Below are positions 6,522 through 39,380 of a stretch of DNA of 64,000 bases, piece after piece. The stretch is from Squalus acanthias (Eukaryota): positions 14,880,001 to 14,944,000 of the forward strand of contig CM059449.1 in NCBI GenBank assembly GCA_030390025.1. Direction: 5' to 3'. Position 1 is the first letter of the stretch, and every line of letters starts with the position of its first letter. The notes beneath the pieces were generated by a model that saw only the letters and a program-made list of their open reading frames with translations, had not been told where the DNA came from and did not search any database. Position numbers and translations under genes: made by a program.

Positions 6522-6860
6522 CAGTGAGTGTTGGGAACATCAAAATTGTACAAAGCCCGACATCCATTAACGTAACCGAGGGGCAGACAGCGGTTCTGTA
6601 CTGTATCTGCGAGGGGCATTGTGGAATAGGCGCCTTCAGGTGGCACAGGAACGGTAAAGGCGGACCTGAACTGTCCAACAGTACAGCAGAATACAGAGGC
6701 CGGGTAATTGGGCCAAATACGGAACAATTCGATGGAAAGACGGGCGTTTCGATTCAATTGGTGAATGTAACAGTGCGTGATTCGGCGACCTATTATTGCA
6801 CTGTGGAATTTGTAAACCCTGGTGAATATTACGGGCAAGGAACGACTCTTGTTGTGACAG
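6522..6860 (+). CDS. Gene A exon V1: NKp30/NCR3-like Ig V-set domain (VJ-joined type)
   Basis: ttttttacAG acceptor, ag|GTGAGC donor, phase 1-1, 339 bp; C...W(HR)...YRGRV...DSATYYC...YGQGTTLVV; resembles human NKp30 (IGSVTWFR..GKEVRNGTPEFRGR..YVCRVE..GNGTRLVV). Confidence 0.9.
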
Positions 6861-7458
6861 GTGAGCATTTTACCCGCTGTTGAACAGGCAGATGGGACCC
6901 GGATTAAGATCTCATCTGAAAGATGATAAGGATGTGGTGATTGAAGCTTTGCATAAGGTAGAATAGAAATCCCAGCTTTTTGCTGCCCGTTTCAACCTGG
7001 GTTCAGAGAATGAATCGCTCTTGAACCCATTTGTTGTTAACCTTTCAGCATATCAACCATATTACCAGTTTCCCAACCTCACTCACCATTCCAACCAACC
7101 CTTTGCGGTGTACTTACCCTCTGCACAAAGAAATGCTTCCTGGTGTCTGTCTTAAACTTTCCCTTCACTGCACTGAACCTGTTCGGGCAATTTAAATCTA
7201 ACCTGCCCATTGTAAAACCCACGAGATCCGGTGCAATGCTGAACCCCGCCCGATTTTACTCTGCATTAAAGTCAATGGGGAAAATGGCGATGAATGTTGG
7301 TCGGGGTGATTCCACCCCGGCGAATTAGGTTAAACTTACTTCTTACTAATATGTATAACGTTGGAATGACTCCAACCTCGTGTCGCATACTTACAGTCAG
7401 TATAAGCACCGATTATACTGTGATCCATTTGATTTTTTAAAAATTCCTTGAAAGAAAC

Positions 7459-8200
7459 CCCGTATTTTCCGATCGGAGGCTTCCTGCGAGTAAAGGCCTC
7501 CGATCTGGAAACAATCTACGCCCTTACCTGAGGGCTTCCGACGGTCCAGACATTTCCGCTCCTGGGCCTCTCCTGGTGCGCGCGCGCGCAGAGGCCCAGG
7601 TATCCCAGGGGCGCAGGCAGTTCGCAAGCGTTTCTGAGATCACGTGGGCCATGGGGAACCAATGGAAGAAGGGAATCCCCCTTCATACTTTTGACAGGTC
7701 TCTCAGCTTAGACCTGTCAAACGTTTGAATGGGGATCACTCAATAAACACATCAAAACATTAAATACATTTAAAAAATCACGTTTTAAAAATTAGTTAAA
7801 ATTACATTAAATTAAATATTTTAAACAAAAGTTTTATTTAAAAAAAATAATTAAAGTGTCTTACGGGCCTAAAAATAAACTTACCTTATAAATGAGTGAA
7901 AAAAAATAGTTTTTTACTTTTTTAAACTCTTATGCTGCTAAAAGCAAACCTTACGCCTGCTTTTACCAGTCTTAAGATTTTTAAGGGATTTCAGTGGGCA
8001 GAGGTTCTGCAGAAAGCGGAACTCTCTGCCCGCGGAGGCCCTTCTCCAGGACAGGCGTCCGATCTATCAAGAGGATTCTTGACAGATCGGAAATGCCGGT
8101 TTTCAGCGCATGCGCTTCGCATGCCTGAAACCGACACTTGCGAGGTCCCTACGGGTGTGTACACAGCTCACACACACCCGTAGGGATCGGAAAATACGGG
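7459..8200. mobile_element. Non-autonomous DNA transposon (MITE) in the V1-V2 intron
   Basis: Perfect 16-bp TIRs cccgtattttccgatc (7459-7474) / gatcggaaaatacggg (8185-8200); absent from the other repeat units. Confidence 0.8.
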
Positions 8201-8332
8201 CCATTACATTTAAAAAAAAAGTAGATTGAAGGAAGCGCTTCAGTTGTTGAAGTAAATTTGAATACTGGAGGTAATTTTAAACACAGCGTAAGTTTCTGGC
8301 TTCAATGTTAAAAATCGTTTGATCTTTTACAG

Positions 8333-8671
8333 CAGTGAGTGTTGGGAACGTCACAGTTGTACAAAGCCCGGCAACCATTAACATAACCGAGGGGCAGACA
8401 GCGGTTCTGTACTGTATCTGCGAGGGGCATTGGGGAATAGGCGCCTTCAGGTGGCACAGGAACGGTACAGGCGGACCTGAACTGTCCAACATTACAGCAG
8501 AATACAGAGGCCGGGTAATTGGGCCAAATAGGGAACAAATCGATGGAAAGACGGGCGCTTCGATTCAATTAGTGAATGTAACAGTGCGTGATTCGGCGAC
8601 CTATTATTGCAAAGTGGAATTTGCAAACCCTGGTGAATATTACGGGCAAGGAACGACACTTATTGTGACAG
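8333..8671 (+). CDS. Gene A exon V2: NCR3-like Ig V-set domain
   Basis: cttttacAG / ag|GTGAGC, 339 bp, phase 1-1, about 95% identical to V1. Confidence 0.9.
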
Positions 8672-8725
8672 GTGAGCATCTTACCTGCTGTTGAACATGC
8701 AGATAGGACCCGGATTAAGATCTCA

Positions 8726-10401
8726 AAGGAACATCACAACATAACAAATAAGAGCAGGAGTAGGGCACACGTCCCCTCGAGCCTGCTCCGCCATTCAATA
8801 AGATCATGGCTGATCATCGACCTCAACTCCACTTGCCCGCCCGATCTCCATATCCCTTGATTCCCCTAGAGTCCAAAAATCTTTCTATCTCAGCCTTGAA
8901 TACACTCAAAGACTCAACATGCACAGCCCTCTGTGGCAGATAATTCCAAAGATTCACAACCATCTGCGTGAAGAAATTCCTCCTAATCTCAGTCTTAAAT
9001 GGCCTACTTCTTATCCTGAAACTATGCCTCCTAGTTCTCGACACGCCAGCCAGGGGAAACAACCTCTCAGCATTTGCCCGGTCAATCCCCTTCAGAATCT
9101 TGTATGTTTCAATGAGATTACCTCTCATTCTTCCAAACTCCATTCTACACAATCTCTCATCCTAGAACAACCCTCTCATCTCAGGAATCAATCTAGTGAA
9201 CCTTCGTTGCACTGTCTCCAAGGCAATTATTCCCTTCCTTACATAAGGAGACCAGAACTGTGCACAGTACTCCAGGTGTGGTCTCACCAAGGCCCTGTAC
9301 AATTGTAGCAAGACTTCCTTACTCTTATACTCCAAACCCCTTGCCATAAAGGCCAACATGCCATTTGCCTTCCTTATTGTTTGCTGTACCTGCATGCTAG
9401 CTTTCTGTGTTTCTTGCACGAGGACACCCAAATCTCTCTGAACACCAACATTTGAAAGTTTCTCACCATTTAAAAATCTTCTGTTTTTCTATTCTTCCTA
9501 CCAGAGTGAATAACCTCACATTTCCCTAAATTAGACTCCATCTGCCACCTTACTGCCCACTCACTTAGTCTACATATATCCCTTTGCAGACTCTTTGTGT
9601 CCTCCTCACAGCTTACTGTCCCATCTAACTTTGCATCATCAGCAAACTTGGATACATTACACTCGGTCCCTTCTTCTAGCTCATTAATAGATTGTAAATA
9701 GCTGAGGCCCCAACACGATCCTTGCGGCACCCCACTAGTTACAGCCTGCCAACCTGAAAAAGATCCGTTTATCCCTACTCTCTGTTTTCTGTCTGTTAAC
9801 TAATCCTCTATCCATGCCAATATATTACCCCAAACCCATGAGCCCTAATCTTGTGTAATAAACTTTTATGTGGCACCTTATCGAATGCCTTTTGGAAATC
9901 CAAATATACTACATCCACTGGTTCCCCTTTATCTACCCTACTAGTTACATCCTCAAAAAACTCTAATAAATTTGTCAAACACGATTTCCCTTTCATAAAA
10001 CCATGTTGACTCTGCGTAATCATGTTATGATTTTCTAAGTGACTTGATACCACTTCCTTAACAATGGATTCCAGCATTTTCCCGACGACTGATGTCAGGC
10101 TAACTGGCCTGTAGTTCCCTGTTTTTTCTCTCCTTCCTTTCTTGAATAGCGGTGTTACATTTGCGACCTTCCAATCCACTGGGACATTCCAGAATCTAGG
10201 GAATTTTGGAAGATCAAAACCAATGCATCCATTATCTCTTCAGCCACCTCTATTAGCACCCTAGGATGTAGGCCGTCAGGTCAAGGGAATTTGTCGGCTT
10301 TTAGTCCCATTAGTTTCTCTAGCACTTTTTCTCTACTTATATTAATTACTTTAAGTTCCTCACCCTCATTAGACCCTTAGTTTCCCACTATTTTTGGTTT
10401 G
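8726..10401 (-). mobile_element. CR1 LINE fragment (RT to 3' end), frameshifted, in the V2-V3 intron only
   Basis: Minus ORFs 9808-10179, 9470-9730, 9162-9431, 8823-9152 are successive CR1 RT pieces; the insertion splits atctca|ctgaaagatg, which is contiguous in the other units. Confidence 0.9.
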
Positions 10402-11057: not shown

Positions 11058-11396
11058 CAGTGAGTGTTGGGAACGTCACAGTTGTACAAAGTCCGGCATC
11101 CATTCACGTAACCGAGGGGCAGACAGCGGTTCTGTACTGTATGTACGAGGGGCATTGGGGAATAGGCGCCTTCAGGTGGCACAGGAACGGTAAAGGCGGA
11201 CCTGAACTGTCCAACAGTACAGCAGAATACAGAGGCCGGGTAATTGGGCCAAATAGGGAACAATTCGATGGAAAGACGGGCGCTTCGATTCAATTAGTGA
11301 ATGTAACAGTGCGTGATTCGGCGACCTATTATTGCAAAGTGGAGTTTGCAAACCCTGGTGAATATTACGGGCAAGGAACGACTCTTGTTGTGACAG
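11058..11396 (+). CDS. Gene A exon V3: NCR3-like Ig V-set domain
   Basis: Canonical AG/GT, 339 bp, phase 1-1, open frame with both canonical Cys and Trp. Confidence 0.9.
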
Positions 11397-12106: not shown

Positions 12107-12445
12107 TAGTGAGTGTTGGGAACGTCACAGTTGTACAAAGTCCGGCATCCATTAACGTAACCGAGGGGCAGACAGCGGTTCTGTACTGTATGTACGAGGG
12201 GCTTTGGGGAATAGGCGCCTTCAGGTGGCACAGGAACGGTAAAGGCGGACCTGAACTGTCCAACAGTACAGCAGAATACAGAGGCCGGGTAATTGGGCCA
12301 AATAGGGAACAATTCGATGGAAAGACGGGCGCTTCGATTCAATTAGTGAATGTAACAGTGCGTGATTCGGCGACCTATTATTGCAAAGTGGAGTTTGCAA
12401 ACCCTGGTGAATATTACGGGCAAGGAACGACTCTTGTTGTGACAG
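12107..12445 (+). CDS. Gene A exon V4: NCR3-like Ig V-set domain
   Basis: Canonical AG/GT, 339 bp; differs from V3 at 3 nt. Confidence 0.9.
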
Positions 12446-13113
12446 GTGAGCATCTTACCTGCTGTTGAAAAGGCAGATGGGACCCGGATTAAGATCTCTT
12501 CTGAAAGATGATAAGGATGTGGTGATTGAAGCTTTGCATAAGGTAGAATAGAAATCCCAGCTTTTTCGCTACCAGTTTCAACCTGAGTTCAGAGAATGAA
12601 TCGCTCTTGAACCCATTTGATGTTAACCTTTCAGCATTTCAACCATATTACCAGTTTCCCAGCCTCACTCACCATTCCAACCAGCCCTTTGCTGTGTACT
12701 TACCCTCTGCACAGAGAAATGCTTCCTGGTGTCTGTCTTAAACTTTCCCTTCACTGCACTGAACCTGTTCGGGCAATTTAAATCTAACCTGCCCATTGTA
12801 AAACTCACGAGATCCGGTGCAACGCTGAACCCCGCCCGATTTTACTCTGCATTGAAGTCAATGGGGAAAATGGAGATGAATGTTGGTCGGGGTGATTCCC
12901 GCCCGGCGAATTAGGTTAAACTTACCTCTTCCTAATGTGTATAACGTTGGAATGACTCCAACCTCGTCCTGCATACTTACTGTCAGTAGAAGCACCTATT
13001 TTACTGTGATCCATTTGATATTTTAAAAATTCCTTGAAAGAAACATCGTAAATTATTTATTTTAAACGTAGATTGAAGGAAGCTTTTCAGTTGTTGAAGT
13101 AAATTTGAATACC

Positions 13114-13542
13114 GGGGGTAATTTTAAACGAAGTCGCTGGGTGGGAATGCCACGCGATCGAGTGGACCGCTGATTTAACACCGCGCCCAATATTAGGGGG
13201 GAATTTAGCCAACCCTGGGGAGGCGGGTATGGAGGCGAGACTGCCGGGAAAATGGCAGAAACTATGGGCTGGATTTTGTCTTGGGGTTGGGTTGGGGTCG
13301 TGTAATCCGCATTTCGTGGTTCCCCCCCGACTCCAGATTAATGTGGATGAATGATGCAATTTTCACTTAATTGGGCAATTGAGTTGGAGCATGTGGGAAC
13401 ATATGAACTAATTAGTGTTTTCAGTCTGAAAGTCGCCTCTGATGATGTCATCATTGCTGACTGCCTAGTCTCAGAGACTGTTGGTGAGAGAGGACCTGCC
13501 TGGCTTTTGATGTGAGTGGACCTGGATGCAAAAATGGGGGGT

Positions 13543-13583
<41 letters not shown>

Positions 13584-14880
13584 GCCAAGCAAGTCCTCCC
13601 AGGCAGTCTCTGAAGACATTCAATGCAGCATCAGAGGCGACGTTCAGACCTAATACTACTACTACTACCTTCATCACATCTCCGTTGTAATAGTGGACCT
13701 GCAGCCGATAGTCAGCTATCCACTTGTGCTCCCGCCAGGTTTCACTGGAGTGTTTCACACCAGGCGTGCTTCACGTCAGAAGAGGGTTAAACTAGCTACA
13801 GCATTTCAAAATGGCATTACAGAGCCAATTTAGAGCTTGTTAAGGGCATTAATGGCCTCTCCCGCCTCTTGGAGGCGGGACGGAGTCGGGAACCCCGTGA
13901 CTGATTTTGTCAAAATTGCATGGAGGCGGGATGGAGTCGGGATGGGGTCGGAAACCCCGACCCCGCAAATTTAACCCCCCACACGCCTCCAAACCCGACT
14001 CCATGGGTCATTCAAAATCCAGCCCTTGGAGTGGGTACTGAACCCGCTTCCAACCTGCCTCCATGCCAGCTTCCCGGGAGGCGGGTCCCCGACTCACACA
14101 GGGGCCCGTCTCCTCGAGGCGGGAAGGGGATTAGAGCTAATTAACTGCCTGTTAACATATAGTTATGAGGCTTATCCCCATTTTACCCCTGTATGTGCGG
14201 GCTTCCCGACGTCGGGAAACCCCGCCAGGGTCGGCGAGGTGAGCAGTGGGTCTGCGGAGGTGAGAGGGGTCGAAGTGTCTGCTGTAGCGGTGAGTGATGC
14301 GTGCAAGTGTGGACAGGTAAGTACGAGTGGTGAGTGTAAAGTGTTACAAAAAGTTTACTTACCTTTGCTTCTTCCTGCAGACTTCAACGCTTGGGGATCC
14401 GGAGGTGCCTCATCTCAATGGCAGAGATGACAGAATGGCGTCGGCATTCTCAAATGCAGCAGCCATCTGATTTCTGCTGAGGAAAGAGGTTTGGTGAGCC
14501 TTCAGTACAAAGGCTCACCTTAGAACAGAGATTGTCAATGTTTGACAGCTTCTCAAAGCTGTCAAACGCTGACAATTCATCTGTCAAAAGGTTTTGACAG
14601 ATGAAACGTCATACGCTGACGTCCTCTGTCACCGGCTTTCCCTTAATTGGCCGGTTAAGCCCGCCCTGCGGGAAAATAGTGTGAGTTGGCTGGACGTCGT
14701 TGGGGGCGGGACTGAAACCCGACAACCAGCAGTCCCGCCCACAACGCGCTCCCATTGATAAAATCCAGCCCTTACTCTCCATTGACTTCGAAAGTGAGCA
14801 AACTGGGGTGGGGTGTAAAACCAGCGTCGCACCCAATCCCGCCAGTATCCACACAGATGGGTTAGTTTAAAATTGCTTCG
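13114..14880. mobile_element. Cluster of nested MITE-like elements
   Basis: Outer ends ggggtaattttaaac / gtttaaaattgc; inner TIR gggctggatttt (13266) with aaaatccagccc (14014-14025 and 14760-14771); internal hairpin near 14531-14576; (GA)n near 13547-13578. Confidence 0.6.
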
Positions 14881-15145
14881 CATCCTAGACAGCATTTGAA
14901 AGAAGAATCTTGTGTTCCATTGAAATTTAATCGCCTCATTCTCTTTTAAAAGCTGATTGAATTATGATTTGATGAGTATAGAATTATTTAGAATACTCAG
15001 GTGTTTCTATCTAACTCTTGCGGGGACCGTGTATTATTTAATCCACCTAGTTATGACAGGTGGAGGCGGGGGGGGGGGGGGGGGGGGGGGGGGGTGGGGG
15101 GTGGGGGGCAGAAAGAAGAACACACTGACATCTGTTTTCTTACAG

Positions 15146-15262
15146 CAGTGAGGACGGGAAATCAAACGCAACTGCTGGTCCTGTATATAATAGCAGTGGC
15201 ATTTGTCGTGACGTTGTTCTCAGCGATCATCACTGTCATTTCCTGCCGAAACAAAACTAAAG
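15146..15262 (+). CDS. Gene A transmembrane exon (uncharged TM)
   Basis: ttttcttacAG acceptor, aaag|GTGGAT donor, phase 1-1; AVRTGNQTQ-LLVLYIIAVAFVVTLFSAIITVI-SCRNKTK. Confidence 0.85.
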
Positions 15263-16709
15263 GTGGATATCGTTTCTATATATAACCTCAAACCTTTCAC
15301 TGTACTCATCATATCAACTGCTTTTTCATCAAATATTATTTATTATTTACCAACATTTTTATGTTTTGAACCCCCCTACTCCCCCAACGCGGAAGTTTAT
15401 CAATCACAATCTGTGAAATTAAAGAAATCCGTTCCCTTGTGTTGGTGTGTGTTTTCATTTTGAAATTGATGCCACATTTCAATTCTCCCAATTTCCCCAT
15501 ATGTTCAAATAGGAAAGTGAAATCATCGAAGAGGATATATGAAGCTTATCACTCTTTACACAAACACCGTAACTGTTCACAATCCCAAATGCAATTCTCG
15601 TAATTTAAGAAAAATGGTTTGCATTCCACCCTTTTATTGTGACTTTGACTGTTAGTTATTTATTGTGAAAATATAAGCACGCCTGTGATATAACATGTTT
15701 GCAATTTCACTATAAACAATCAGCAAGAACCCGCCCATTATTTTACTTAATAATAATTTACTAATATTAAATCAAATATATTCAATTATTTTTAAATATA
15801 TATTCATTCTGTTATACTAATGAATTGCCTGCGGTGTTACACACGGGTAGTCAAGAACAAGTTTACTCTTCAGATAAAGTGGGGTTAGAAATGGACCAGA
15901 CATAAGATTTTGAACAATATATATTTCTGAAGTACAGTCTGAGGAACTGGGAGATACAAAACTGAGGCGTTACAGCGCCACCACTGATAGGACGGTGTCA
16001 TTTCAGCGGTACTAGTTTAGGTTCCCAGTTGTTTCCATAAACATGGACATATGGTTTCATCCACTATTTGTTAATATCTTAATTTTCTATTTGAAAAATC
16101 TTAATTTCTGTTTTCACATGTTTGTCACACTTTTGGGTCAACGTTTTCTAATTATAAACTCCTATTTCTACACGTTTAGAATGGTCTATGCACTTGTCAC
16201 ATTGCAATTCCATGCTTCCACCAGTGGTGGCCTGGTCACGCCTCAGTTCTGCGTCTCGCAGCGCCTCGCCTGTACTACAGAAAATTCCTATGCTCCAGTC
16301 AGCTCATCTCAGCTTCCCAAATTGTACTCATTTTTACTATTTAACTATAAGTACTAATATAAAATCAAAGTATATATGGGCAGATTGCATTACTGAATGC
16401 GATTGAATTATATTTCCAGGAACTGGCTCCAAATATTCTCCAGCCTTCTACACCCTTCACCTGAAGACTACACTTGCTCCGGACTGCCTATAAATATAAG
16501 CAGCTTACACACCAAACCTTACTTTTAGTATATAAATATAATATCTATTTTATAGATGTGTTTTTTTAAATTGTGTGATAATACCCAGTTGGATGTTAGA
16601 CTGGATGAGTTAGAATCATAAGAGGGCGAGCCTGGAAGTACTGAGTGGCGATTCCCGGTCACTGATCTTTCTAACATTCTACTTTTCCTCCCCTCTACAC
16701 CTCATACAG

Positions 16710-16750
16710 ATAAAGGTGACCAAGGACCTCGGTGCAGAGTTGACAATCAG
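16710..16750 (+). CDS. Gene A cytoplasmic micro-exon (DKGDQGPRCRVDNQ)
   Basis: Pyrimidine tract + catacAG, cag|GTACCT; phase 1 to 0, which exactly bridges the TM exon to the ITIM exon. Confidence 0.7.
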
Positions 16751-18019
16751 GTACCTGACACCGCAAAATGAGCATGCATGAGCATATGTCCTTGAACACA
16801 ATGATACCTGTTGGATGCTGGTTTTTATTTATGCTTAGATTTTTTTTAATCGATTCCTCAAAATCGAAAAGCTTCTTGAGACGTCGAGGTCAAGCGTTCA
16901 TAGATTTATTGAGCATACAGTACATGTAAGATTACTTAAACATACACTTAAAAGATAATGCTTACAACCACACATGATGGTTGGGGATTCAAACGCAATA
17001 GAACTCTGAGCTCAGTATTTTAGTTTGATCAAACTCTTTCTAGTTCCAATGCTCATTACAAACAGTCACTTTTTTAATATGCTTCTCTCACCCGAACACC
17101 ATGATTCTACCAAAAATGCAACTCCATATAAGATGAATCTAATTGACCTATATGGGGATAATGCAGGAAAGTGGAGTTGAGGTAGAAGATCAGCCATGAT
17201 CCTATTCAATGGCGGAGCAGGCTCGAAGGGCCGGATGGCCGACTCCTGCTCCTAATTCTTATGTTCTTATGTTCTTATCAACACCATCAATTAATAAATT
17301 GGTGTCCTTATAACATGCTATTTTTTATTGGGCTAACGAAATCAGTATAACTTTTACAGCTCATTATCTTATCAATAATTGGTCTCTTGTTACATATAAT
17401 TGCCATTTCAACAAGCGAAACGACTAATTATAAGTTTTGTCTTTTACTCTGTGCCATTCGGCAGCAGTTAATTCCCTCATGCTGCACAACCCCGAATTAA
17501 AAACGATAATATTTACTCAGATGTTTTCCTTTTTCAGACTAACTGTTGTCTTTGCATCCATGTCATTGATTAGAGCTTCTTGAAACTGATGAACCAATGT
17601 GCAATGGCACGTCCTTAATTAAGATTCCTCATTAAGAAGATGGTTACTTCAGATTAAAACCTACCAGTGCCTTAGGGTCAGTCTCAGTTCAAACGTGCAG
17701 TGGTCACGACTGTAAAATTGTTTAGTTAACAAACAAAGGCCAAAAGCTAATATTGCTACAATACATAAATAATCAACAGCAGTATTTCATTAGCAGACTT
17801 CAAGTCAATCTGAATAAACCTTTTCCATTCAATGGCCTTCTGAAATAATTTACCGTTACAATCTTGTTTTCAATTACAAAACTGTATGTGCCAATTTCTT
17901 TCAAATTTTGACCACAGCAGTTTAATTTGGTTGCATTTCAGGCTTCAATCAAAATACAGAATCATCTATAGTTTTTTTGAAATCTTTCTTTATTCATTTC
18001 TGCATGCCTGTTGGGTTTA

Positions 18020-19355: not shown

Positions 19356-19475
19356 ACAAATGAAGCAGAGAAAGTACAATATTCTGCATTGATCTTCAAT
19401 GAAAGAAAGGGAAGACCCCGTTCATCTAAAGATGACGAAAACGTTGCCTATAGTTTGGTGGAATTACAGCATTGA
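19356..19475 (+). CDS. Gene A terminal exon with two ITIMs
   Basis: tttctcttgaaacAG acceptor; TNEAEK-VQYSAL-IFNERKGRPRSSKDDEN-VAYSLV-ELQH-stop (TGA 19473-19475); candidate AATAAA at 19756-19761. Confidence 0.85.
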   Translation, partial: TNEAEKVQYSALIFNERKGRPRSSKDDENVAYSLVELQH

Positions 19476-19555
19476 TCATCAAGTCATTTAGCGTGTTAGC
19501 CTCCAGCATTATACGTATTGCACGTTATGGAGGCATGCAACTGAAACTGCCTATG

Positions 19556-27404: not shown

Positions 27405-27859
27405 ACATATGTGACAGCTACTCAATAGGAATTTGTGAATGGTGAAATGTTCTACAGGTTTCGACTACAGAATACGTTTTGTGTCCTATATTTCCCCACC
27501 AATCGGTCTCGTATACCGCATTGACCTTTAGTACCCAGTATCCCATTCGCTTTTTACGGCCTTATCAGCTTGTGGTGTTTTTTTAATCTCTTGTGAACGT
27601 GAAGTCCAACTCGCTTTGCTCTTCCACATTATCCAGTTTTCCCGCATTCGAAGTAAAACTGGCGGGGTTACCGCCGCTAGGGGCTAATCACAACAACCTC
27701 CTTCCGGTCCCACTCACCCCACCCACCACTGTCCCCTTGGACTTTGTCAGTGGATCCATAATCACCGCCCCACTCTGCATTTACCTCTGCAATGTCCCTT
27801 CAGTGGCAAAGATGTCTGTTAACATCCACAACCTTATCCTACATGGTAAGGTAGACTAT

Positions 27860-29625
27860 AGTGGGGTCATGGTTATGTTTTGGGACTAGTAATAGGAACA
27901 AGAGTAGGCCTTTCTGCCCCTCCAGCCTGTTCCGCCATACAATTATTCGTGGCTGATCTGCAGCTTAACACCATCCACCACCTTGGTTCCATAACAAAAA
28001 TCTATCAATCTCAGTATTGAAACTTACAATTGACCCCCAGCCTCAACAGCTTTTTGAGGGAGAGAGTTCTAGATTTCCACTACCCTTTGTGTGAAGAAGT
28101 GCTTCCTCACATCACCCCTGAACGGCCTATGCCCCCTTGTTCTGGACTCCCCCCCACCATATGAAAAAGCTTCTCCCTATCTACCCTATCAAATACTTCA
28201 TTTTAAACACTTCAATTAGACCACCCCTTAATCGTCTGCACTCAAAGGAATACAAGCCTAGCCTATGCAACCTGTCCTCATAATTTAATGGAGCGAGTTT
28301 GAGAATTTAAAAATTCTGAATGAAAAATGGTATCAGTAAAAGTGACATTTAAACTGACAGATTAAAGTAAAAACCCAAGTGTTTCATTAATGCCCTTTGG
28401 GAAAGGAATCCTGCCGTCCTTATCCAGTGTCTGGTCTATATTTTCTTTTATTATTCGTTTGTGCGATGTGGGCGTCGCTGACAAGGCCAGTATTTATTGC
28501 CCATCCCTAATTGCCCTTGAGAAAGTGGTGGTGAGCTGCCTTCTTGAACCGCTGCAGTCCGTGTGGTGTGTGACCTGGAGGGGAACTTGGAGGTGGTGGT
28601 GTTCCCATGCGCCTGCTGCGATTCCAGTTCCACACCAACGTGCTTGATGTTAACTGCCCTCTGAAGTGATCTAGCAAGCCATTCAGTTGCATCACCATCT
28701 TCTCAGGACCACTAAGAATGGGCAATAAATGCCAGTCTTGCCAGCGATGCCCACATCCTGAGAATTATACCAAACATTGCATTGACATTATGGCTTTGAT
28801 GGAAATTTGGCTCTCAGGTGGTGACACCTTTCTCTTTGCTGAAGTCTCCCCACCTGGCTAAGAACCCAAGACCTAGGAGCAGGAGTAGGCCATACAGATC
28901 TTCGAGCCTGCTCCGCCATTCAATAAGATCATGGCTAATCTTCGACCTCAACTCCACTTTCCTGATCCCCATATCGGATGAAAGGTCATCAACCTGAAAC
29001 GTGAACTCTATTTCTCTCTCCACAGATGCTACCTGACCTTTTAAAAAATTTATTCGCTCATGTGATGTGGCCGTCGCTAGCAAGGAGAAATGATGGTGAG
29101 CCACCTTCTTGAATTGTTGTTCTTTATAGTGATTTGGTACAACTGAGTGGCATTTCAGAGGGCAGTTAAGAGTCTAGTGAGAGGGGGTCTGTGGGTCTGG
29201 AGTCACATATAGGCCAGATCAGGTAAGGACGGCAGATTTCCTTTCCTAAAGGACATTAGTGAGCCAGATGTTTTTTTTACGACAATCAGATAGTTCCATG
29301 GTCACCATGACTGATACTAGCTTTTTATTACAGATTTATTTAATTAACTGAATTTAAATTTCCCAGCTGCCTTGGTGGGATTTGAACCACATCATTAGTC
29401 CAAGCCTCTGGATTACTGGTACAGTAACCTAACATCTATGCTACAATTCTGGTCGTATTTCCAGCATTTTCTGTTTTTACTCCGTATCCATTGATTCCCT
29501 TAGAATCCAAAAAGCTATCTATCTCAGCCTTGAATATACTCAACGACTGAGCATCCACAGCCCCCTGGGGCAGTGAATTCTAAAGATTCACAACCCTCTG
29601 AGTCCAGGAATTTCTTCTCATCTTT
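27860..29625. mobile_element. Nested patchwork of CR1 3' ends, tRNA-headed SINE pieces and a PLE pseudo-LTR remnant
   Basis: CR1 ends (27892-28288, 28876-28975, 29482-29625, - strand); SINE bodies (28289-28765, 29047-29447); aaggtcatcaacctgaaacgt..cacagatgct at about 28980-29040 matches the 39797 element. Confidence 0.6.
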
Positions 29626-29959
29626 CCATCATCTGCCCCATCCTAATTGCTATGGTGGAGGGAAGGCCCTTATCGCCACATTATACCTTGATCTGTCCCC
29701 CTACTCCTCTGGTACCTACTCCTTCGAGCACCTCACCTTAGTTCGCCCCTCTCACCAGTCCTTTAAAGCCTTCTTTATCGACCGTCCCCATGCACAAACG
29801 GAGTTTCTCACCAATCTATTCCCCCTCCTTACCTCTCTCAGTCTCTGCACTGAGTGACTCCACGTGATCCAACTTCCATTACAATCCCATCTGAACTCCA
29901 TCTGAACCCTCTGCCCTCTACTTTCACTGCATTGTTGCCCCTCTGTTTGAATTGCTTCA

Positions 29960-31185
29960 ATCAGATTTCTGCCCCCGCCAAAGAATTGAAACAGGCCTAA
30001 TCAAACTCGCAAATGCCATGCACCGTGACTGTGACCAGAGTGCACCATTCCTTCTCATTCTTCTCGACTTCTGCAGCATTGGACACGGTTGATCTCACCA
30101 ACCTGCTCCAACATCGCTTCTCTGTTGTTCAGCACAGTGGAATGGCCCTCGCTTGGCTCCCCCTTACAATATTAGCTAGATTATCTCCAGCAATGGCCTG
30201 TCTTCCCGCCTCTGCACTGTTGCCTCTGGAATCCCCCAAGGATCTATCCGTGGCCCCATGATCTTCCCCATCTATATACTACACTTCAGTGACATAATCC
30301 AGAGACATGACTTCAGGTTCCACATGTACGCCGATGACATCCACCTCTACCTAACCACTGACTCTGTGTTGTCACACTGCTTGTCCAACATTTGATTCTG
30401 AATGAGGCATACGTTCCTCCAGTTAAACATTGGGAAGACCAAAGCCATCATATGCGGCCTCAGCTACAAACTCAAGCTTTTCAACAATTCAATCCCCCTC
30501 CCCAATTACTGTCTCAGGTTTAACCAGACTGTTCGCAACCTTGGTATCCTATTTTACTTAATCTGAGCATCCGACCCCATATCCTCTCCATTACAAAGAC
30601 CGCCTACTTCCACCTCCGTAACATCAGCCAGCTCCACCTCTGCCTCAGCTCATCTGCTGCTGAAACCCTCATCAACGCCTTTGTCATTACTAGATTCAAC
30701 TATTCCAATGATCTCCTGGCCGACGTCCCATCCTCCACCCTCCACAAACTTGAACTCATCCAAAACTCTGCTGCCTGTATCCTAACCCACACCAAGACTT
30801 GCTCACCCCTGCACTCGCTGACCCACATTGGCACCCCGTACAGCAATGCCTTGAATTTATATGTCTCTTAATTGTGTTAAAATTCCTTCAAAGCCTTGTC
30901 CCTTTTTATCTTTGTAATCTCTTTCAGCCCAACAAGCCTCCGAGAACTGTGTTCCTCAAATTGTGACCTCTTAAGCATCCCGCACTCCCTTCGCCCCACC
31001 AGTGACAGTCATGCCTTCAGCCACCTCGGCCCTCTGTACTACAATTTCTTCCCTAAACCTCTATGCCTCTCCACCCCTCTCCTCTTTTAAAATCCTCCTT
31101 AAAACACACCTCTTTTACCAAGCTGTTAGTCACCCCTCTAATATCTCCTGCTTATAATCAGCGTTGATTTTTGTCTGATTTTTTA
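29960..31185 (+). mobile_element. Degenerate L2-type LINE fragment
   Basis: Homologous to 20689-21597; HMYADD remnant (cacatgtacgccgatgac, 30321-30338), catccaaaactctgctgcc. Confidence 0.75.
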
Positions 31186-31188
31186 AAA

Positions 31189-31623
31189 ATTCGTTCTTGG
31201 GATGTGGGCGTCGCTGGCAAGGGCAGCATTTATGGTCAATCCCTAATTGCCCTTGAGAAGGTGGTGGTGAGCCGCCTTCTTAAACCACTGCAGTCCTTGT
31301 GGTAAAGGTACACCCACAGTGCTCTTAGGCGGTTGTGTACAACGGAGTGGCTTGCTAGGCCATTTCAGAGGGCAGTTAAGAGTCAACCCCATTGCTGTGG
31401 GTCTGGAGTCACATATAGGCCAGACCAGGTGAGGATGGCAGATTTCCTACCCTAAAGGACATAAGTGGCCCAGATGGGTTTTTACGACAATCCGATAGTT
31501 TCATGGCCACCATTAACTGATACTAGATTTTTTATTCCAGATTTATTTAATTAACTGACTTTAAATTCCCCAGCTGCCTCTGGATTACTAGTCCAGTAAC
31601 ATAACCACTATGCTACCGTTCCC
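31189..31623 (-). mobile_element. tRNA-headed SINE whose 3' tail is shared with the second LINE family (other copies about 29047-29447, 53129-53483, 55616-55847, 58662-59066)
   Basis: Reverse strand starts ggtagcatagtggttatgttactggactagtaatcc (A-box-like); B-box-like gagttcaaattcc at 53379-53391; ends in the same aagaaggcggctcaccaccaccttctcaagggcaattaggg tail as the LINE. Confidence 0.7.
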
Positions 31624-31657
31624 GAGAGAACTGACAGTACTGAAAACTGCCTAGCGT

Positions 31658-32190
31658 CTCCTTACCTAAGGATGGATATACCTGCCATAGAGGGAGTGCA
31701 ACGAAGGTTCACCAGACTAATTCCTGGGATGGGGAGATTGTCCTATGAGGAGAGATTGAGTAGACTAGGCCCATATTCTCTGGAGTTTAGCAGAATGAGA
31801 GGTGATCTCATTGAAACAAACAACATTCTTACAGGGCTTGACAGGGTAGATGCAGGGAGGATGTTTCCCCTGGCTGGGGAGTCTAGAACCAGTGGTCACA
31901 ATCTCAGAATAAGAGGTCGGCCAATTAGGACTGAGATGAGGAGAAACTTCTTCACTCAGAGGGTGGTGAATCTTTTGAATTCTCTACCTCAGAGGGCTGT
32001 GGAGGCTCAGTCGTTGAGTATATTCAAGACAGAGATCGATAGATTTTTGAATGTTAAGGGAATCAAGGGATATGGGGATAGTGCAGGAAAGTGGAGATGA
32101 GGTAGAAGATCAACCAGGATCTTATTGAATGGCGGAGCAGGCTCGCGGGGCCGAATGGTCTACTCCTGCTCCTATTTCTTATATTCTTAT
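31658..32190 (+). mobile_element. CR1 LINE 3' fragment
   Basis: ORF 31672-32100. Confidence 0.85.
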
Positions 32191-33617
32191 GAGTGCAGGA
32201 CAAGGCATTGTTAGTCCATCTGATAGAAGGCAAGTCGGGATTGCTGCCAGATGCACTTCACACAAAGAGTGATTAATACCTGGAATGATCTTCCTGATAG
32301 AGCGGTGGAGGCAACAATTATAAAGTCATTTATGAGGCAGGTAGTTGCGGGTTTCCAGTAGTGAAGAACTCGATGGCCCGAATGCCTACTCTCACCGAAC
32401 CTAGCATAATTTGTGGAAATTGAACATTTCTGAATTTCGCTGCAGATAACGTACTACCACGGAAAGAGTTAAGGTTAAACGAAACTGCTCTCTTCCTTAT
32501 TGCGTTGTCATGAATAAAATGTGTACAGTATATTCACAGCATTTCATACTTTCCCATTTATCTGTATTAGTGATATCATCATGTATTATTGGAAGGATAG
32601 TTCAACAGTGCTCTATAGACATAAAGGGTGTTTGACATAAGCACGTCCTCGTCAATGGATCAATTAATCCTGTCCCAGCGCCTCGCAGAGTAACCTATTT
32701 ACGTAAAGGCGGTTTTTCTGTCCTCCTGTCGGCTATGCGTTAGGATACAAATATCACTCTTAAAATACTGCTTCGGCCTTCAGTCTGCAGCGTTTTATAT
32801 ATAACCTTTCGTTTTCGCATTAAGCATAACGTTCCAGACTTGCATCCGGCAGTTTGCGGAACTGTATAGAGACTGAGGTCAGTCCTACTCGAGGACTTTG
32901 CACGTAGCTTTCTGGCTCTGTCGCAACCCTTGCAAGCAACCGGCCAGCAAAGAAAACACGGGCCGCTGATAATTGGGATTGCGTTTCAACACAATCGGCT
33001 GCGGGTTTGAAAGTTTAAAGGACAGCCTTGAAATATAACATGAGAACGCCTCACTTGCTTGAGCATTTGCGATTTGGTTTTGCGATGCTCTGTGTCATAG
33101 TTTCATGCAACAGTTAAATAGGTTTATATATTTTACATGGATTCGTTCCGTCTTTGCAATAATAGCCAGAGGAATTCTAACCAAACGCCTGAAGCTTTCG
33201 CAGGCCAACATTGCATGAAGCCATGAAATTACTTCTTGAGCTAGCAACACATTAAAGCGTCTCTTCCGACATTTCTTCCACCATTATTTGAGCGGAGTAA
33301 ACGTAATCTCCGAGAAAGTAGCAGTGGGGAATTTCCGGAACATGTTAACTGTTTGCACAGCAGTGTCCCACGAGGCAATTTCAGAGCAAGGGTAATTTCA
33401 AGTCTCAAATTAAGTCCTAAGGCCATTCCCTTTGGCGACTGAGAAACATAATTGGGATACAGCAGCACAGGGCCATGAATGGGAAATATACATCAACGCC
33501 CTTCCCATAATATTAACCACAATTCGAGCAATTTGTCATTCTCAAAGTATACTATTACTACTGAACATGTGGGGACGAACCTATATCATTTCTCTCACAC
33601 TGGAGAACTACAAGAAA

Positions 33618-34267
33618 CAGGTTGCCATAAAAAAAGCAAACCAAGCACTAGAGTTTATTTCTAGAGGGATAGAATTGAAAAGTAGGGAAGTTATGCTAAA
33701 CCTGTATCGAACCTTGGTTAGACCACACTTGGAATACTGCGTACAGTTCTGGTCGCCATATTATAAAAAGGATATAGAGGCACCGGAGAGGGTGCAGAAA
33801 AGATTTACAATGAGGATATCAGAAATGCGAAGGTATACATATCAGGAAAGGATGAGCAGGCTGGGTCTCTTTTCTCTTGAAAAGAGAAGGCTGAGGGGTG
33901 ACCTAATAGAGGTCTTTAAAATGATGAAAGGTTTTGACAGAGTGTATACAGAGAGAATGTTTTCACTTGTGGGGAAGAGCTTAACTAGAGGCCATCAATA
34001 TAAGAAAATCACCAAGAAATCCAATAGGGAATTCAGAAGAAACCTCTTTACCCAAAGAGTGGGGAGAATGTGGAATTCACTACCACAGAGAGTGGTTGAA
34101 GCGAATAGTATAGATGCATTTAAGGGGAGGCTAGACAAGCATATGAGGGAAAAGGGATTTAGATGAGGACAGACGGGAGGAGGCTCGTGTGGAACAGTAA
34201 CGCCGGCATGGACTGGTTGGGCCGAATGCCTGTTTCTGTGCCGTATATCCTATGTAATCCTATGTAA
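33618..34267 (+). mobile_element. CR1 LINE 3' fragment
   Basis: [19 protein letters not shown] in ORF 33432-34166; tatgtaatcc tail. Confidence 0.85.
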
Positions 34268-35383
34268 ACTGATCGTTAATCCTTGCCTCATCTCCAGCCT
34301 CCAACTTTTCACACCCCATTGCAATCTTCCTGTTCTTTCCCTATTTCATTGATGCTAATATTGTCGCTATTGCCCCTTCACCTAACCTCCGTTGCTCCTC
34401 TTAACAATAAATTGCTCAATTCTGCACACCCCTCTTCCTCCCTGCAACCTCACCGTGTTGAAATCAAGACTAGTGTTCGGCGTTCTATTTTATCAGGATG
34501 CCAAATCTGCGAAACGCCTTATGAGTCAATTAAAAGTGTAAAATGGGAGGAGGGGCAAAACGGACGCCGGACCCGAACCCGAGCCATTCCCGTCGGGCAG
34601 TCTAAATTAAAATTAGGGCTGAAGGACCCCCCCCCCAAAAAAAATTAGCTAGACGCTTTGCGACCGTTTTACTTACTCACCTTTGCGTTCGCTCAATAAT
34701 TGTTCCATGACCACGTTTCCCTGTGCCTCTTACACAAGGTCTACCTGCAAAAGAAGTCTTCCGGTGCTTCGAGTCAACAGATGACAATAAACGAATTATG
34801 GAAATATGAACTAAAAAGAGCAAACATTGGAAATATACTGCAGTTCACTAAACATCTGAAAGAGAAAGACAGGACCGTGATTCTGGGATCGTTCATCGCT
34901 ACTGCTACAGTTTTGCATTAACATACTCCACTGACACCTGCTCACCGAGCCAAATGTAGAGTCAGAAATGTTGTTCAATAGGAAATAGGACAGGAGTAAA
35001 TTAGCGCGTTCAATGTATTGCAGATATGCAGAATAGATGTGGACTTTTCACCCCGTTACCTCATATCCTGCCGTGTATAACCTCACAGCGCATGTCCACA
35101 ATGGCATTACTGACCTGATTGTCCAAAAGCGTGTTATGTTACTACTCTACTGCAACAGTAATGAATTCAATCTGGATATGGGCCCTTACTTGCGGTAATG
35201 AGTTACTTTTTTAAAAGAAGATTGAGCGACGCGGAGAAATCCTGAAGTATAGTTCAAGTTTATTCAAGTTGCGCAACCCAATTTCAATGCTGAACAACTG
35301 TATCAACTGCGTCTTGAACAGAGACCACAGAGAGCAGAGTCTTCACACCCTGTGCACTTTGTCTACGAACGCATGATTTTAGA

Positions 35384-35483
35384 ATGTTAAGTTGTTCTCA
35401 TTCCGTAGTTGCACCGAGATGGGAGTTCGCCGCACTTTTAGTGCGTGTAATTATCTTGTAATGTACAATTTCAAATGTTATCT
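35384..35483 (+). pseudogene. Candidate leader exon of gene B containing an in-frame TAA
   Basis: ATG 35384; MLSCSHSVVAPRWEFAALLVRVIIL*CTISNVI then T|GTAAGT (phase 1, matches the V exon); hydrophobic core interrupted by TAA 35459-35461. Confidence 0.35.
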
Positions 35484-36156
35484 GTAAGTTTGAGAATGTG
35501 ACACAGTTTGCTAATGCTGATGGCAATAGGCTGAGTAACGATGCGGGCTCGCAACTGCAGCCTCCCCTGTTTTTTTTCAATGTTGATTTAATAGAAATAA
35601 CACTTTTACTACCACTTAATGAGTTTAATGTAGATAGATAGGCAAATGGGCAGTTAATTGGATACAAAGTTGGAGAGACATATCTATACATCGATTCATC
35701 CAGACATAAATAGTTGGCTAGGTATAACTGAAGCTATGAAGCATTGTGATGTATGTCGATACATAGCTATTAACGCAAATTCTGATCGCTGCTGATTTAA
35801 ATTTTTATTAAATATGTTCAGCTATAAGTTCCAGAACTGTTCAGTTGATGCAATCGTTTAGCTTCGAAAGCCTTCATCAATAAGCAATAGAACAGTGGAA
35901 GTGCCATAACCTACAAGGCTACCGACCAAGTGCTGGAAAGTGGGATTAGGCTGGATAGCTCTTTGTCCGCCGCCACGGACAAGATGGCCCAAATGGCCTC
36001 CTTCTGTACTGTAAATTTCTATGAGTCTATGATTCTATGAGAACAGTAGTTGGATTAAATAGCACAGTGACGAATAAAAGCATGTGCTCTCCCATTCTTC
36101 TTTACAACTAACAATGCGTAAATATAATGAAGGGTATTAGATGAAAGGTGTGAAAA

Positions 36157-36560
36157 ATAGAAGGTTAAGGGGTGATTCGATCGAAGATTTCAAGATATTA
36201 AGGGGAACAGATAATGTAGATAAAGATAAACTATTTCCGCCGGTTGGGGTGTCTAGGACTAGGGGGCATCGTCTAAAAATTAGAGCCAGACCTTTCAGGA
36301 GTGAAATTAGGAATCACTTCTAAACACAAAGGGTGGTAGAAGTTTGTAATTCTGTTCCGCAAATGGCAATTGATGCTGGGTCAATTGTTAATTTTAAATC
36401 GGAGATTGATAGCTTTCTGTTAACCAACGGTACTAAGGGATATGGGCCAAAGGCGGGTATATGGAGTTAGGTCGTAGATCAACCATGATCTCAATGAATG
36501 GCGGAACAGGCTCGAGGGGCTGAATGGCCTACTCCTGTTCCTGTGTTCCTATGTTCCTAT
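36157..36560 (+). mobile_element. CR1 LINE 3' fragment (further short 3' ends flank it)
   Basis: RRLRGDSIEDFKIL...RGHRLKIR; cctatgtt tail. Confidence 0.8.
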
Positions 36561-36921
36561 GTGTGGGAGAATGCTCATATGGAGCATAAAAGCGGGCTAG
36601 ACTAGTTGGGCCGATAGGTCAGTTTCTGTGCTGAAGGCTCTATGCAACTCTATGTGACTATGTAAATCAACTAATAGCACCTCTATTCTATCATTTTTGC
36701 GTTGACGGCATGCAGTTCTCAGCAACGCAATGAGATGCAATTGATAGCAAGACTATGAGTTATTGCGCTCTACAGTATAACGGATCGAGCAGTGTCACTT
36801 TACTACCTTCAGCGTCATTTAAATGCTGCACATATAGGTTTATCGAGCCATAAAATCTGCCTGGTTTCTATCATATGAACGGAAACATATTTTTAACCTC
36901 AAACCTTCTTCATTTACACAG

Positions 36922-37266
36922 TTACCACAGTTACTGCAGAAAATATCACAGTCATTCAAATCCCAATCTTCCTTAATGCAACGGAGGGACAAAAGGTGGA
37001 TTTGTTTTGTACGCATGCAGGTCCTTCAGGGGTCGGTGTGTACGCATGGCACAAGACCACTAAAGATGGATTGGAAGTCACCAATACAATTGAGGAATAC
37101 AGCGGGCGGGTGTCTCGGGCAAGTGCGGAAGATTTCAGAAAAATGAGGGACGCTTCCATTAATATCATCGATGTGAGACAGTACGATTCAGGGATCTATT
37201 ATTGCAAAGTGGAACTACTGGGATTCGAGAAATCCTATGGAGCAGGAACAACACTCAATGTAGCGC
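36922..37266 (+). CDS. NCR3-like: Gene B V exon: NKp30/NCR3-like Ig V-set domain
   Basis: catttacacAG acceptor, gcgc|GTGAGT donor, phase 1-1; ENITVIQIP..EGQKVDLFC..GVYAWHK..GLEVTNTIEEYSGRV..DASINIIDVRQYDSGIYYCKVELLG..YGAGTTLNV; aligns with human NKp30 (IRDVRGHDASIYVCRVEVLG). Confidence 0.88.
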
Positions 37267-37394
37267 GTGAGTGCATTTCTTTGCTTTTGTATTTAGGATT
37301 GAATTGCTGTATAAGAGGTACATGGATGTCCGTTTGTTACAAGTCAATATATGAAGGATTGTTTGTACACAGAGATGACAGCATTGATCAGAAA

Positions 37395-37582
37395 TCTCTC
37401 TCTCTCTCTCTATCTATCTATCTATTTATCTATCTATCTATCTCTGTCTCTCTAACTATCTCTCTCTAACTATCTCTCTCTCTCTATCTATCGGTCTGTC
37501 TGTCTGTCTGTCTGTCTCTATCTATCTATCTGTCTGTCTGTCTCTCTATCTCTCTATCTACCTATCTATATCGATATATACA
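37395..37582. repeat. Compound (TC)n/(TATC)n/(TGTC)n microsatellite
   Basis: Direct reading. Confidence 0.9.
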
Positions 37583-38617
37583 TACACCAGCATCGGAGAA
37601 AGAAAGTGAGACAATAGGGACAATAGTGAGAAAGGATAAATAGAAATGCAGAATTAAAGTCACAAGAAACTAAAGCAAATATTTCACATTGTGCATTTGT
37701 TTTAAGTTTTCTAATCATATGATTAGTATCCTATAACTGGAGATCAGATTACAGTTGATCACAACATCAAGGACGGAGAGCATAAGGCAAAGAGCAGAGA
37801 GTTGCTAGGATCAAACAACGAAAAGACAACATTTGTTGCAGAAAGTTGCAGGAAATTCATGAAATGTTGTAGAAAAGAGCAACAAATATCACTTTTGATA
37901 AATAAAACCAAGCGATATAATTGACAGCAAATCATTGTCTAAACATACTCTTTTAATCATTGAGGTAGATTTTGGTGTTAAACACCGACTGGCGGAACCC
38001 AGAACGGGAAATCTGGCAGAGAGATTCACAAGACACTTACAGACCCCCCCCCCCACCCCCCCAGACTTTTCTTCCATTAATTTAAAAGGAAGGAAAATCA
38101 GACGGGTTCTGTTACCGTCGTGGGACCACCCTCGCCGGATTTTAACTTTCTGCACTCCTCCCCAGCAATGCTTAATTATTTTCTTGTATGTTCGCGGGGG
38201 CTCGGCGACAATGACAAAGCCGAATTGATTGTCCATCGCTAGCTGCCAATGTTGTAGCTTCCACGACAGTGGTAGAATAGTGTGGCGTGCGGGAGGGTGG
38301 TTGTAAGGGAGAAAGGATTGTACATGTGATTGCTGAGGAGACTGCTTGAATATACCAGAGTCCATGGAGCGATTTTAACTTAACCAGCCAGTCGGGAAAC
38401 TGGTGCAACTCTGGGTTTACACCCCACCCGATTTTTAACTCTTCATTGAAGTCAGAGTTCCACTCGATCCTGGAGGTTTCCCTCCAGGTGAGTTAGCTTA
38501 AATCCAATAGCCCAATATATGTGGGTGAGACAGAAATTGATTGTAGGTATGAGAGAGGGGGGGGGGGCGGGGGGTGGGGGAGAGAGAGAAACCGTGCTTT
38601 TGAAAGCGGGACAGACA

Positions 38618-38993
38618 TAAAGAAGGCTAAGAGGAGATTTGATAGAGGTGTTTAAAATCAGGAAGGGATTAGGTAGAGTAAATAAAGAGAAACTGTTTCC
38701 ACTGGCTGAAGGGTCGATAACCAGAAGCCACAGATTTAAGGTGATTGGCAAAAGAACCAGCGGCGACATGAGGAAAAACTTTTCTCTGCAACGAGTGGTT
38801 AGGATTTGGAATGCACTGCCTGATAGGGTGGTGGAGGCAGATTCAATATTAACTTTCAAAAGGGAATTGGATACATTCTTGAAGGAGAAAATATTGCAGG
38901 GCAGTGGGACTAACTGGATTGCTCTTCGCAAGAGCTGGCGCAGACTCCATGGGCCGAATGGCCTCCTTCTGTGCTGTATTATTCTATGATTCT
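38618..38993 (+). mobile_element. CR1 LINE 3' fragment
   Basis: ORF 38639-38989. Confidence 0.85.
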
Positions 38994-39242
38994 CAGACGT
39001 GCGTATGGACGGCATTTGTAGGAGTTAAGAATTCTTTTGGTCCCATTCTTTATTTCGCTAGAGCAGAGGAAATCTCTCCAGACACATTGGCGAGGTCGCT
39101 ACACATAGCAGTTGGTGCAATTCTTAACTAATTGGGTGTGCATGTCGAAGAGACAGTTGAGAGCTTAGGTCGGAAACACAAATACTGAGTGCGTTTTCGA
39201 GGAGGAAGGGAGAAGAAAATGATTTTCCTCTTTTCTCTGCAG

Positions 39243-39380
39243 GTCGGATTGATGGAATTAAAACATCCGCTAATAACCAAGATCAACTCCGAGCAATTCT
39301 GTTTGGTGGTGCAGCAGGAATGGCAATTATGCTGATTATTTTTGCAATTGTGCGCACTCTGCGTTCTTGTGAAAATAGAG
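39243..39380 (+). CDS. NCR3-like: Gene B stalk + transmembrane exon
   Basis: ttttctctgcAG acceptor, agag|GTAATT donor, phase 1-1; RIDGIKTSANNQDQ-LRAILFGGAAGMAIMLIIFAIV-RTLRSCENR (missed by the ORF track). Confidence 0.82.

Follow-up and report, generated by a model that had tools for sequence, protein, structure and literature searches.

A predicted inhibitory NCR3-family gene and a putative arginine-signalling neighbour in Squalus acanthias

We analysed a 64,000-nucleotide (nt) stretch of Squalus acanthias DNA (assembly GCA_030390025.1, contig CM059449.1, positions 14,880,001 to 14,944,000, forward strand; hereafter the window), which holds two neighbouring receptor genes, here called gene A and gene B. 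Both are members of the shark cluster of NCR3 (NKp30) genes. In the reading that we favour, to which we give a probability of about 0.45, gene A is predicted to be an inhibitory receptor with at least four variable (V) domains and two immunoreceptor tyrosine-based inhibitory motifs (ITIMs), and gene B would lack an ITIM, signal through an arginine at the edge of its transmembrane segment (TM) and bind a ligand other than that of gene A. A first-pass annotation of the same DNA had proposed an adjacent inhibitory and activating pair from one V family, perhaps with ligands of the B7-H6 kind. The splicing of both genes was inferred throughout from splice signals, reading frame and homology, and splice sites were scored with an approximate matrix.

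Membership in the shark NCR3 family

A V-domain profile search of the window returned five immunoglobulin (Ig) exons, four in gene A and one in gene B, and no other match below E 0.5. All five are non-rearranging V exons (PF07686) with a J-like GxGT strand in the same exon. When the V domain of gene B was compared with the sequences of the PDB, four matches were obtained at E≤1e-6, every one of them human NKp30. Its AlphaFold model has a predicted local distance difference test (pLDDT) score of 95.7 and a helix at residues 63-69 (alpha2). Foldseek placed NKp30 at ranks 1-4 for this model (TMq 0.83-0.88, root-mean-square deviation (rmsd) 2.0-2.4), with SIRP ranking lower. For the V domain of gene A, NKp30 was the best single-domain PDB sequence match among the matches listed (the best 60 of 105). 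In the fold search with the model of its fourth V domain (V4, pLDDT 91), NKp30 stood at ranks 2, 4 and 6, level in E-value with SIRPalpha at rank 1 and with a lower rmsd. The kinship to NKp30 proposed by the first-pass annotation is borne out by the sequence and fold matches of gene B and by the best single-domain sequence match of gene A.

Among 6446 candidate proteins, 18 were found by a profile search, including nurse-shark NCR3 P0014 and P0040 as well as horn-shark, catshark, bamboo-shark and sawshark models. The closest named relatives of gene A are P0001 (horn shark NCR3-like, V domain 76%), P0002 and P0003 (range 61-76%), which carry ITIM-type motifs; gene B is 55% identical to nurse-shark P0014 over the V domain. 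With these named shark relatives the proposed membership in a cartilaginous-fish family holds as well. SIRP, antibody or T-cell receptor V domains and CD28/PD-1 were considered as the closest family and rejected by sequence, fold and tree comparisons. Genes A and B are thus members of the shark NCR3/NKp30 cluster. This family and its linkage to the major histocompatibility complex (MHC) have already been published, which limits the surprise. Kinlein et al. are said to have described eight divergent, MHC-linked subtypes of shark NCR3 in 2021. No open paper on the pairing of ITIM and Arg forms in shark NCR3 turned up, which is not a claim of absence, as Kinlein 2021 may cover ITIM-bearing, charged or multi-V forms. 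Eight nurse-shark NCR3 accessions, MT914154-914161, are given in PMC12227049.

In the catshark, LOC119975537 (P0005) has C4C-S at a distance of 28 kilobases (kb), with RGL-like, C4B-H and an annotated NCR3 close by; it is not itself marked as NCR3 in the supplement (PMC10751288). The same source places the C4 genes beside P0005 in MHC class III and gives five NCR3 genes of 11-21 kb each in a row on white-shark chromosome 19, the MHC chromosome, and three on sawfish chromosome 34 (PMC10751288). The MHC synteny suggested for the locus therefore stands for its relatives in catshark, white shark and sawfish; no marker gene was seen in the window itself.

To survey signalling types, we took 162 proteins, non-NCR3 proteins included, which gave 71 segments with a recognisable G strand and TM; the remainder were dropped. 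A segment was classed as basic-TM when two or more hydrophobic residues preceded a basic residue located 12-20 positions from the inner end, a rule that was fixed after viewing the data. Under this rule an ITIM is present in 0 of 25 basic-TM segments (median tail 16) versus 27 of the remaining 46 (median tail 72.5), and therefore activating-type and inhibitory-type members coexist in the family. At this level the proposed paired logic is upheld, with short-tailed basic-TM members on one side and uncharged ITIM members on the other. In the nurse shark P0040 has a charged TM, and P0014 an uncharged TM with a short tail. Catshark P0005 is a single model in which an ITIM-type unit is followed by a short-tailed unit with an Arg TM; it probably represents two neighbouring genes, one of each type, fused in one model.

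Gene A: an ITIM tail and young V copies

Gene A lies on the plus strand. Its four V exons are found at 6522..6860 (V1, joined VJ-type V-set, PF07686 E 6.5e-12), 8333..8671 (V2), 11058..11396 (V3) and 12107..12445 (V4), and each has 339 nt, AG/GT ends and phase 1-1; the first-pass annotation makes no mention of their number. They are followed by a stalk/TM exon at 15146..15262 (tblastn against P0001: 51% identity, E 8e-7) and by a putative cytoplasmic micro-exon of 41 nt at 16710..16750 (phase 1 to 0), which is suggested by the frame and by the second-best local match to the P0001 tail within 12446-19600. The terminal exon at 19356..19475 holds two ITIM-type motifs and the stop and was recognised by a tail hidden Markov model (HMM; E 4.7e-9) and by tblastn with P0027, P0001, P0002 and P0003. 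The whole model has 544 codons with the sole stop at its end. A leader exon was looked for in the window and none was found, so that four V exons are a minimum for gene A.

The TM is a hydrophobic run of 25 residues (15172-15246) with zero charged residues, and the terminal exon encodes VQYSAL (19374-19391) and VAYSLV (19443-19460), with a Tyr-to-Tyr spacing of 23 residues. The uncharged TM and the ITIMs ascribed to gene A by the first-pass annotation are thereby confirmed: the gene combines such a TM with tandem (I/V/L/S)xYxx(L/V/I) motifs, as an ITIM receptor does. The first motif is conserved in P0001-P0003 and P0027; in the second, Tyr is replaced by Cys in P0002, P0003 and P0027. By analogy with established ITIM biology, gene A is very probably inhibitory. 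Ligand binding would lead to phosphorylation of the two ITIMs and then to recruitment of a SHP-1/SHP-2-type phosphatase, and the V repeats may provide more reach and avidity or allow alternative exon choice. As a separate observation, in P0027 a V domain of the P0037/P0056 clade is joined to an ITIM tail of the A type, which again points to module exchange unless the model is a fusion.

The V copies of gene A are tandem duplications of exon plus intron. Two V-domain trees were built, a larger one with 81 domains from 52 chosen proteins and a smaller one with 26 domains, whose groups are named from the larger tree. In the larger tree the gene A copies form their own clade (99/96) inside the A clade (100/100). 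Divergence among the copies is 0.9-5.3% in the V exons versus 3.1-6.3% in the introns, and V3 and V4 differ at only 3 of 339 nt. The V exons contain no insertions or deletions, against about 2.8 expected from the introns (P=0.06), and their donors are identical in all copies. Positive selection is not shown by the 24 variable sites, of which 20 are nonsynonymous and 4 synonymous (ratio of nonsynonymous to synonymous polymorphism (pN/pS) 1.7, p=0.48). Judged by their sequences, the V copies arose recently and have stayed intact, and selection on them is not proven.

Several further observations concern these copies and their surroundings. V1 has two extra Cys (domain positions 29 and 33) and V2 has one (position 29), located in the B strand and BC loop, which could make an extra or inter-chain disulfide. 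Across V1-V4 there are 3, 5, 3 and 4 N-glycosylation sites. The intron portion of the V2 repeat unit is interrupted by a retrotransposon fragment at 8725-10401, whose insertion therefore postdates that duplication. The 64-kb window is rich in remains of retrotransposons of the non-LTR (long terminal repeat) kind. Long reverse-transcriptase frames (Pfam RVT_1) were found at 3780-5393 (minus strand), 2-2125 (plus strand, also with an endonuclease domain) and 53454-55547 (plus strand); the first is presumably Penelope-like and the second CR1-like. Retrotransposon frames fill the region where the leader of gene A would be expected.

Gene B and its route of signalling

The V exon of gene B (36922..37266, plus strand), NKp30-like and with a predicted helix alpha2, starts 17,447 nt past the stop of gene A on the same strand, with no Ig exon between. 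A candidate leader exon with a weak donor lies at 35161..35194; it is one of three leader candidates in 19476-36921, is in open frame with the V exon and resembles family leaders. The stalk/TM exon at 39243..39380 (plus strand) reads QLRAILFGGAAGM and holds the Arg codon (39290-39292), after which come 20 hydrophobic residues (39293-39352) that include a GxxxG motif. Two cytoplasmic micro-exons follow on the same strand. The first, at 39549..39570 (22 nt, acceptor score 8.2), is suggested by homology to P0156 and P0020, and a 26-nt form of it would stop in the next exon; the second, at 39660..39688 (29 nt), has a strong donor and a read-through stop at 39712. Leader, V, TM and the two micro-exons give 189 open codons. 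Gene B thus reaches at least 39688, past the endpoint of 39380 in the first-pass annotation, and has a tail of at least 26 residues.

The outline of gene B given there was otherwise accurate: it lies about 17 kb downstream on the same strand, and has one divergent V domain and a TM whose outer edge carries an Arg. The phase-1 micro-exons claimed to follow both TM exons were also recovered (41 nt in gene A, 22 and 29 nt in gene B). The S-C-x-N motif is present in both TM exons (15241-15252 and 39365-39376), near their ends and not at them as had been stated. Relatives share its Cys and mostly not its Asn, so that the motif is weak evidence.

In human NKp30, the stalk has 15 residues and ends in Arg143, whose alignment with the Asp of CD3zeta is required (Skorepa et al. 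2020, PMC7409301, citing Memmer 2016). The Arg of gene B ends a stalk of 17 residues, much as human Arg143 does. It lies 20 residues from the inner TM end, within the range of 12-20 in the 25 basic-TM members, and the five residues after it score above 23 of these 25 members and above all 20 of the 20 others with a basic residue nearby. A catshark V-clade relative of gene B, the second unit of P0005, combines an Arg TM with a short tail. On this basis the NKp30-like V domain of gene B may bind a ligand of the B7-H6 type. The Arg, placed where the stalk ends, would line up with the two Asp of a dimer of the CD3zeta/FcRgamma type, in the manner reported for Arg143 of human NKp30. Leaving aside how its ligand relates to that of gene A, the evidence tips slightly towards a gene B that has no ITIM and is coupled to a zeta/gamma-type adaptor.

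Several results weigh against this coupling. Polar residues precede the Arg, and the four residues before it score below 23 of the 25 basic-TM members, and the window from -4 to +10 scores below all 25; the 20 hydrophobic residues that follow could span the membrane without the Arg. In a class set post hoc, in which no more than one hydrophobic residue precedes a basic residue 18-21 from the inner end, an ITIM is present in two of three other proteins; one of the three is a lungfish SIRP-like protein. The closest V relative of gene B with a TM, horn-shark P0153, lacks the Arg. Among 57 tails the juxtamembrane tail of gene B best matches the ITIM-type P0156 and P0020, whose scores were reached in 5 and 81 of 20000 shuffles, respectively (about 0.014 and 0.23 after 57 comparisons). 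It has no significant match to the same-clade first unit of P0005 (17764/20000 shuffles) or P0014 (8053/20000). Finally, the last donor (39688) is the strongest of 12 scored (8.5), and more exons may follow.

When stalk, TM and tail were taken together and compared with 12 others, z was 7.8 for P0020, 7.1 for P0156 and 4.3 for gene A, and below 1 for the Arg/Lys types (P0005 second unit, P0040, P0154) and P0153. These values lend moderate support to a different origin of the V exon and the TM/tail module. Gene B would then be modular, with a V from one clade and a TM and first tail exons resembling another, ITIM-bearing clade, and may therefore be an activating form that arose from an inhibitory module by gain of the Arg and loss of the ITIM exon. 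The order of these events is our reconstruction.

The same match to P0020 and P0156, and not to the Arg/Lys types, fits an alternative in which gene B is a second inhibitory receptor, with an ITIM exon beyond the window or diverged and with the Arg merely a residue at the stalk edge. The strong unused donor at 39688 and the polar residues ahead of the Arg are also in its favour. However, a basic residue at the position of the gene B Arg is lacking in P0020 and P0156. Moreover, no P0020/P0156-type ITIM exon was found in the 24.3 kb downstream of gene B, with a profile whose best match in the window had E 0.36 and which recovered left-out members at E≤1.4e-10; the mapped introns of genes A and B measure 0.09-2.7 kb, and the white-shark NCR3 genes as a whole 11-21 kb. 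ITIM-like words behind acceptors occur at chance frequency (7 on the plus strand versus 6 on the minus strand). The next exon after 39688 was not found by tblastn with 152 proteins, two HMMs, local alignment with six distal tails or an acceptor scan; the local alignments are insensitive, as gene A's own exon stayed at chance level with five of six queries. None of 413 candidates was a longer protein found with the V domain of gene B alone. We consider a second inhibitory receptor rather unlikely, at less than half the weight of a coupled gene B. A phase-compatible candidate chain (45624-45670, 50168-50211, 51592 onward), in which two ITIM-like words occur, was discarded, given acceptor scores of -0.6, 4.3 and 0.4 and words at chance level.

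Gene B may also lack both an ITIM and an adaptor bearing an ITAM (immunoreceptor tyrosine-based activation motif), and act as a decoy, as a homodimer through GxxxG or as a co-receptor with a short tail of its own. The atypical context of the Arg would agree with this, as would P0014, an uncharged, short-tailed member of the clade that resembles the gene B tail, and read-through of the last donor, which gives a short tail with a YxxM word. Yet L-R-A-I recurs in the Arg-type P0142, P0057 and P0023, the YxxM sits in low-complexity intron DNA, and CD89 likewise has polar residues one turn above its Arg, in a source that speaks of NKp30 assembly as assumed from the Arg (PMC13107469). An uncoupled gene B thus appears less probable again than a second inhibitory receptor, and coupling through the Arg remains our preferred route.

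A DNA contig of a relative spans 38968-39820 at the TM of gene B, with 53 differences and 1 gap in 854. For expression, no RNA data set was listed for 36800-37400; within 37600-53123, two of three presumed RNA runs were aligned and gave no cover in the bin of the TM and micro-exons, and those joints that were listed all lie in repeats, which speaks neither for nor against expression. In-frame AG acceptors of the V exon stand at 36922, 36931 and 36940, at 9-nt spacing, with a good score at the first only. Read-through past the last donor covers 39689-39714, and nurse-shark P0014 seems to end near the border that matches this donor. Read-through of the TM donor (39381-39463) would add 27 open codons and a second hydrophobic stretch, probably by chance.

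Ectodomains of the two genes and comparison with known receptors

The V domains of genes A and B are identical at 46 of 107 residues (43%, E 3e-31). In the 26-domain tree the V of gene B falls in one group (99/96) with P0007, P0155 and, from catshark P0005, the second V, and forcing it into the A clade or into the P0020/P0156 clade was rejected by the approximately unbiased (AU) test (p=0.011 and p=0.02, respectively); in the 81-domain tree its placement stays open. NKp30 contacts B7-H6 at 11 positions (Li et al. 2011, PMC3135353, Table II), which were mapped onto both genes by sequence anchors. Gene B is identical to human NKp30 at 5 of 11 positions and gene A at 3-4 of 11, and V4 of gene A agrees with gene B at 3 and differs at 8. 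The equivalents of Gly51, Phe85 and Glu111 are kept in both genes, with Phe missing in V2 of gene A; the Phe85 equivalent is also lost in the A-clade relatives P0001-P0003. Helix alpha2 forms the B7-H6 ligand groove of NKp30 (PMC3135353). Of the V4 and gene B models, only that of gene B contains it, and V4 has a long hairpin in its place. Against this last point, the missing helix rests on one AlphaFold model with a pLDDT of 76 in that block.

Because the V clades differ, the contacts agree at only 3 of 11 positions and alpha2 is predicted in gene B only, a ligand shared by the two genes is unlikely, and the idea of a matched pair reading one ligand finds no support. The genes are genomic neighbours (17.4 kb, same strand), and their ectodomains are neither near-identical nor sister clades. 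P0012, from another organism, has two A-clade V domains and an A-type TM exon whose Arg stands in the usual register; it lacks an ITIM. Its TM exon has z 6.5-7.8 against gene A and P0001-P0003 and z below 2.7 against six others tested. By sequence, P0012 is the activating twin type that a strict pair with gene A would need. The window holds no P0012-type gene, nor were additional copies of V, TM or tail detected there. A true pair of A and B, giving opposite signals from the same B7-H6-type ligand, would suit two neighbours of one family on one strand that have Gly51, Phe85 (except in V2) and Glu111 in common, and an ITIM unit also stands beside an Arg unit in catshark P0005. It is nevertheless improbable, given the low V identity, the rejection of a single clade, the eight differing contacts and the closer twin type that gene A has elsewhere. 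Equally improbable is that gene B is a truncated pseudogene or that some V copies of gene A are skipped or not expressed: the end of gene B is unmapped, its leader donor is weak and the gene A V exons diverged about as fast as their introns, but gene B has open codons throughout, good acceptors and an intact predicted fold, the gene A V exons lack insertions and deletions and keep identical donors, and models with several V domains are frequent among family members (P0004, P0006, P0012).

Like the known shark NCR3 family, genes A and B have a joined VJ-type V exon and are clustered, divergent paralogues with charged (as P0040) and uncharged (as P0014) members. Within that family gene A stands out by four species-specific V copies. 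In gene B, a V of the P0007/P0005 type is linked to a TM and tail of the P0020/P0156 type that carry an Arg, an arrangement unseen among the proteins compared. Human NKp30 (NCR3, CD337; PDB 3NOI, 3PV6) resembles gene B in a fold with alpha2, as predicted for gene B, in 5 of 11 B7-H6 contacts and in the stalk (17 residues in gene B, 15 in the human protein). In contrast to human NKp30, which is a single gene, gene A is multi-domain with ITIMs and has a model without alpha2, and gene B has polar residues before its Arg and a multi-exon tail.

Classical paired receptors have near-identical ectodomains, unlike genes A and B with their 43% identity and separate clades. Nevertheless, as in KIR/Ly49, SIRP and NITR, members with ITIMs and members with a basic TM occur in one family, and activating forms seem to derive from inhibitory modules (P0012 and possibly gene B). 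For KIR and Ly49 the derivation of activating receptors from inhibitory ones is a stated principle (Abi-Rached and Parham 2005, PMC2213150). It is conceivable, though doubtful, that shark NCR3 is a KIR-like system in which activating receptors repeatedly arose from inhibitory modules, as P0012 and a shuffled gene B would suggest, and that human NKp30, single and activating, is what remains of an ancestral MHC-linked paired family. NKp30 is among the few natural killer (NK) receptors with relatives from shark to human, and signalling in the shark cluster therefore bears on the ancestral MHC-linked NK receptor. To this the locus adds a recent fourfold V expansion within a gene of the ITIM type, the predicted loss by the A clade of the helix that forms the B7-H6 groove, signs of exchange between V and TM/tail exons, and an Arg that may have been gained more than once. 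If this is confirmed, activating receptors would have been born repeatedly in the oldest lineage of jawed vertebrates too, as is known for KIR and Ly49.

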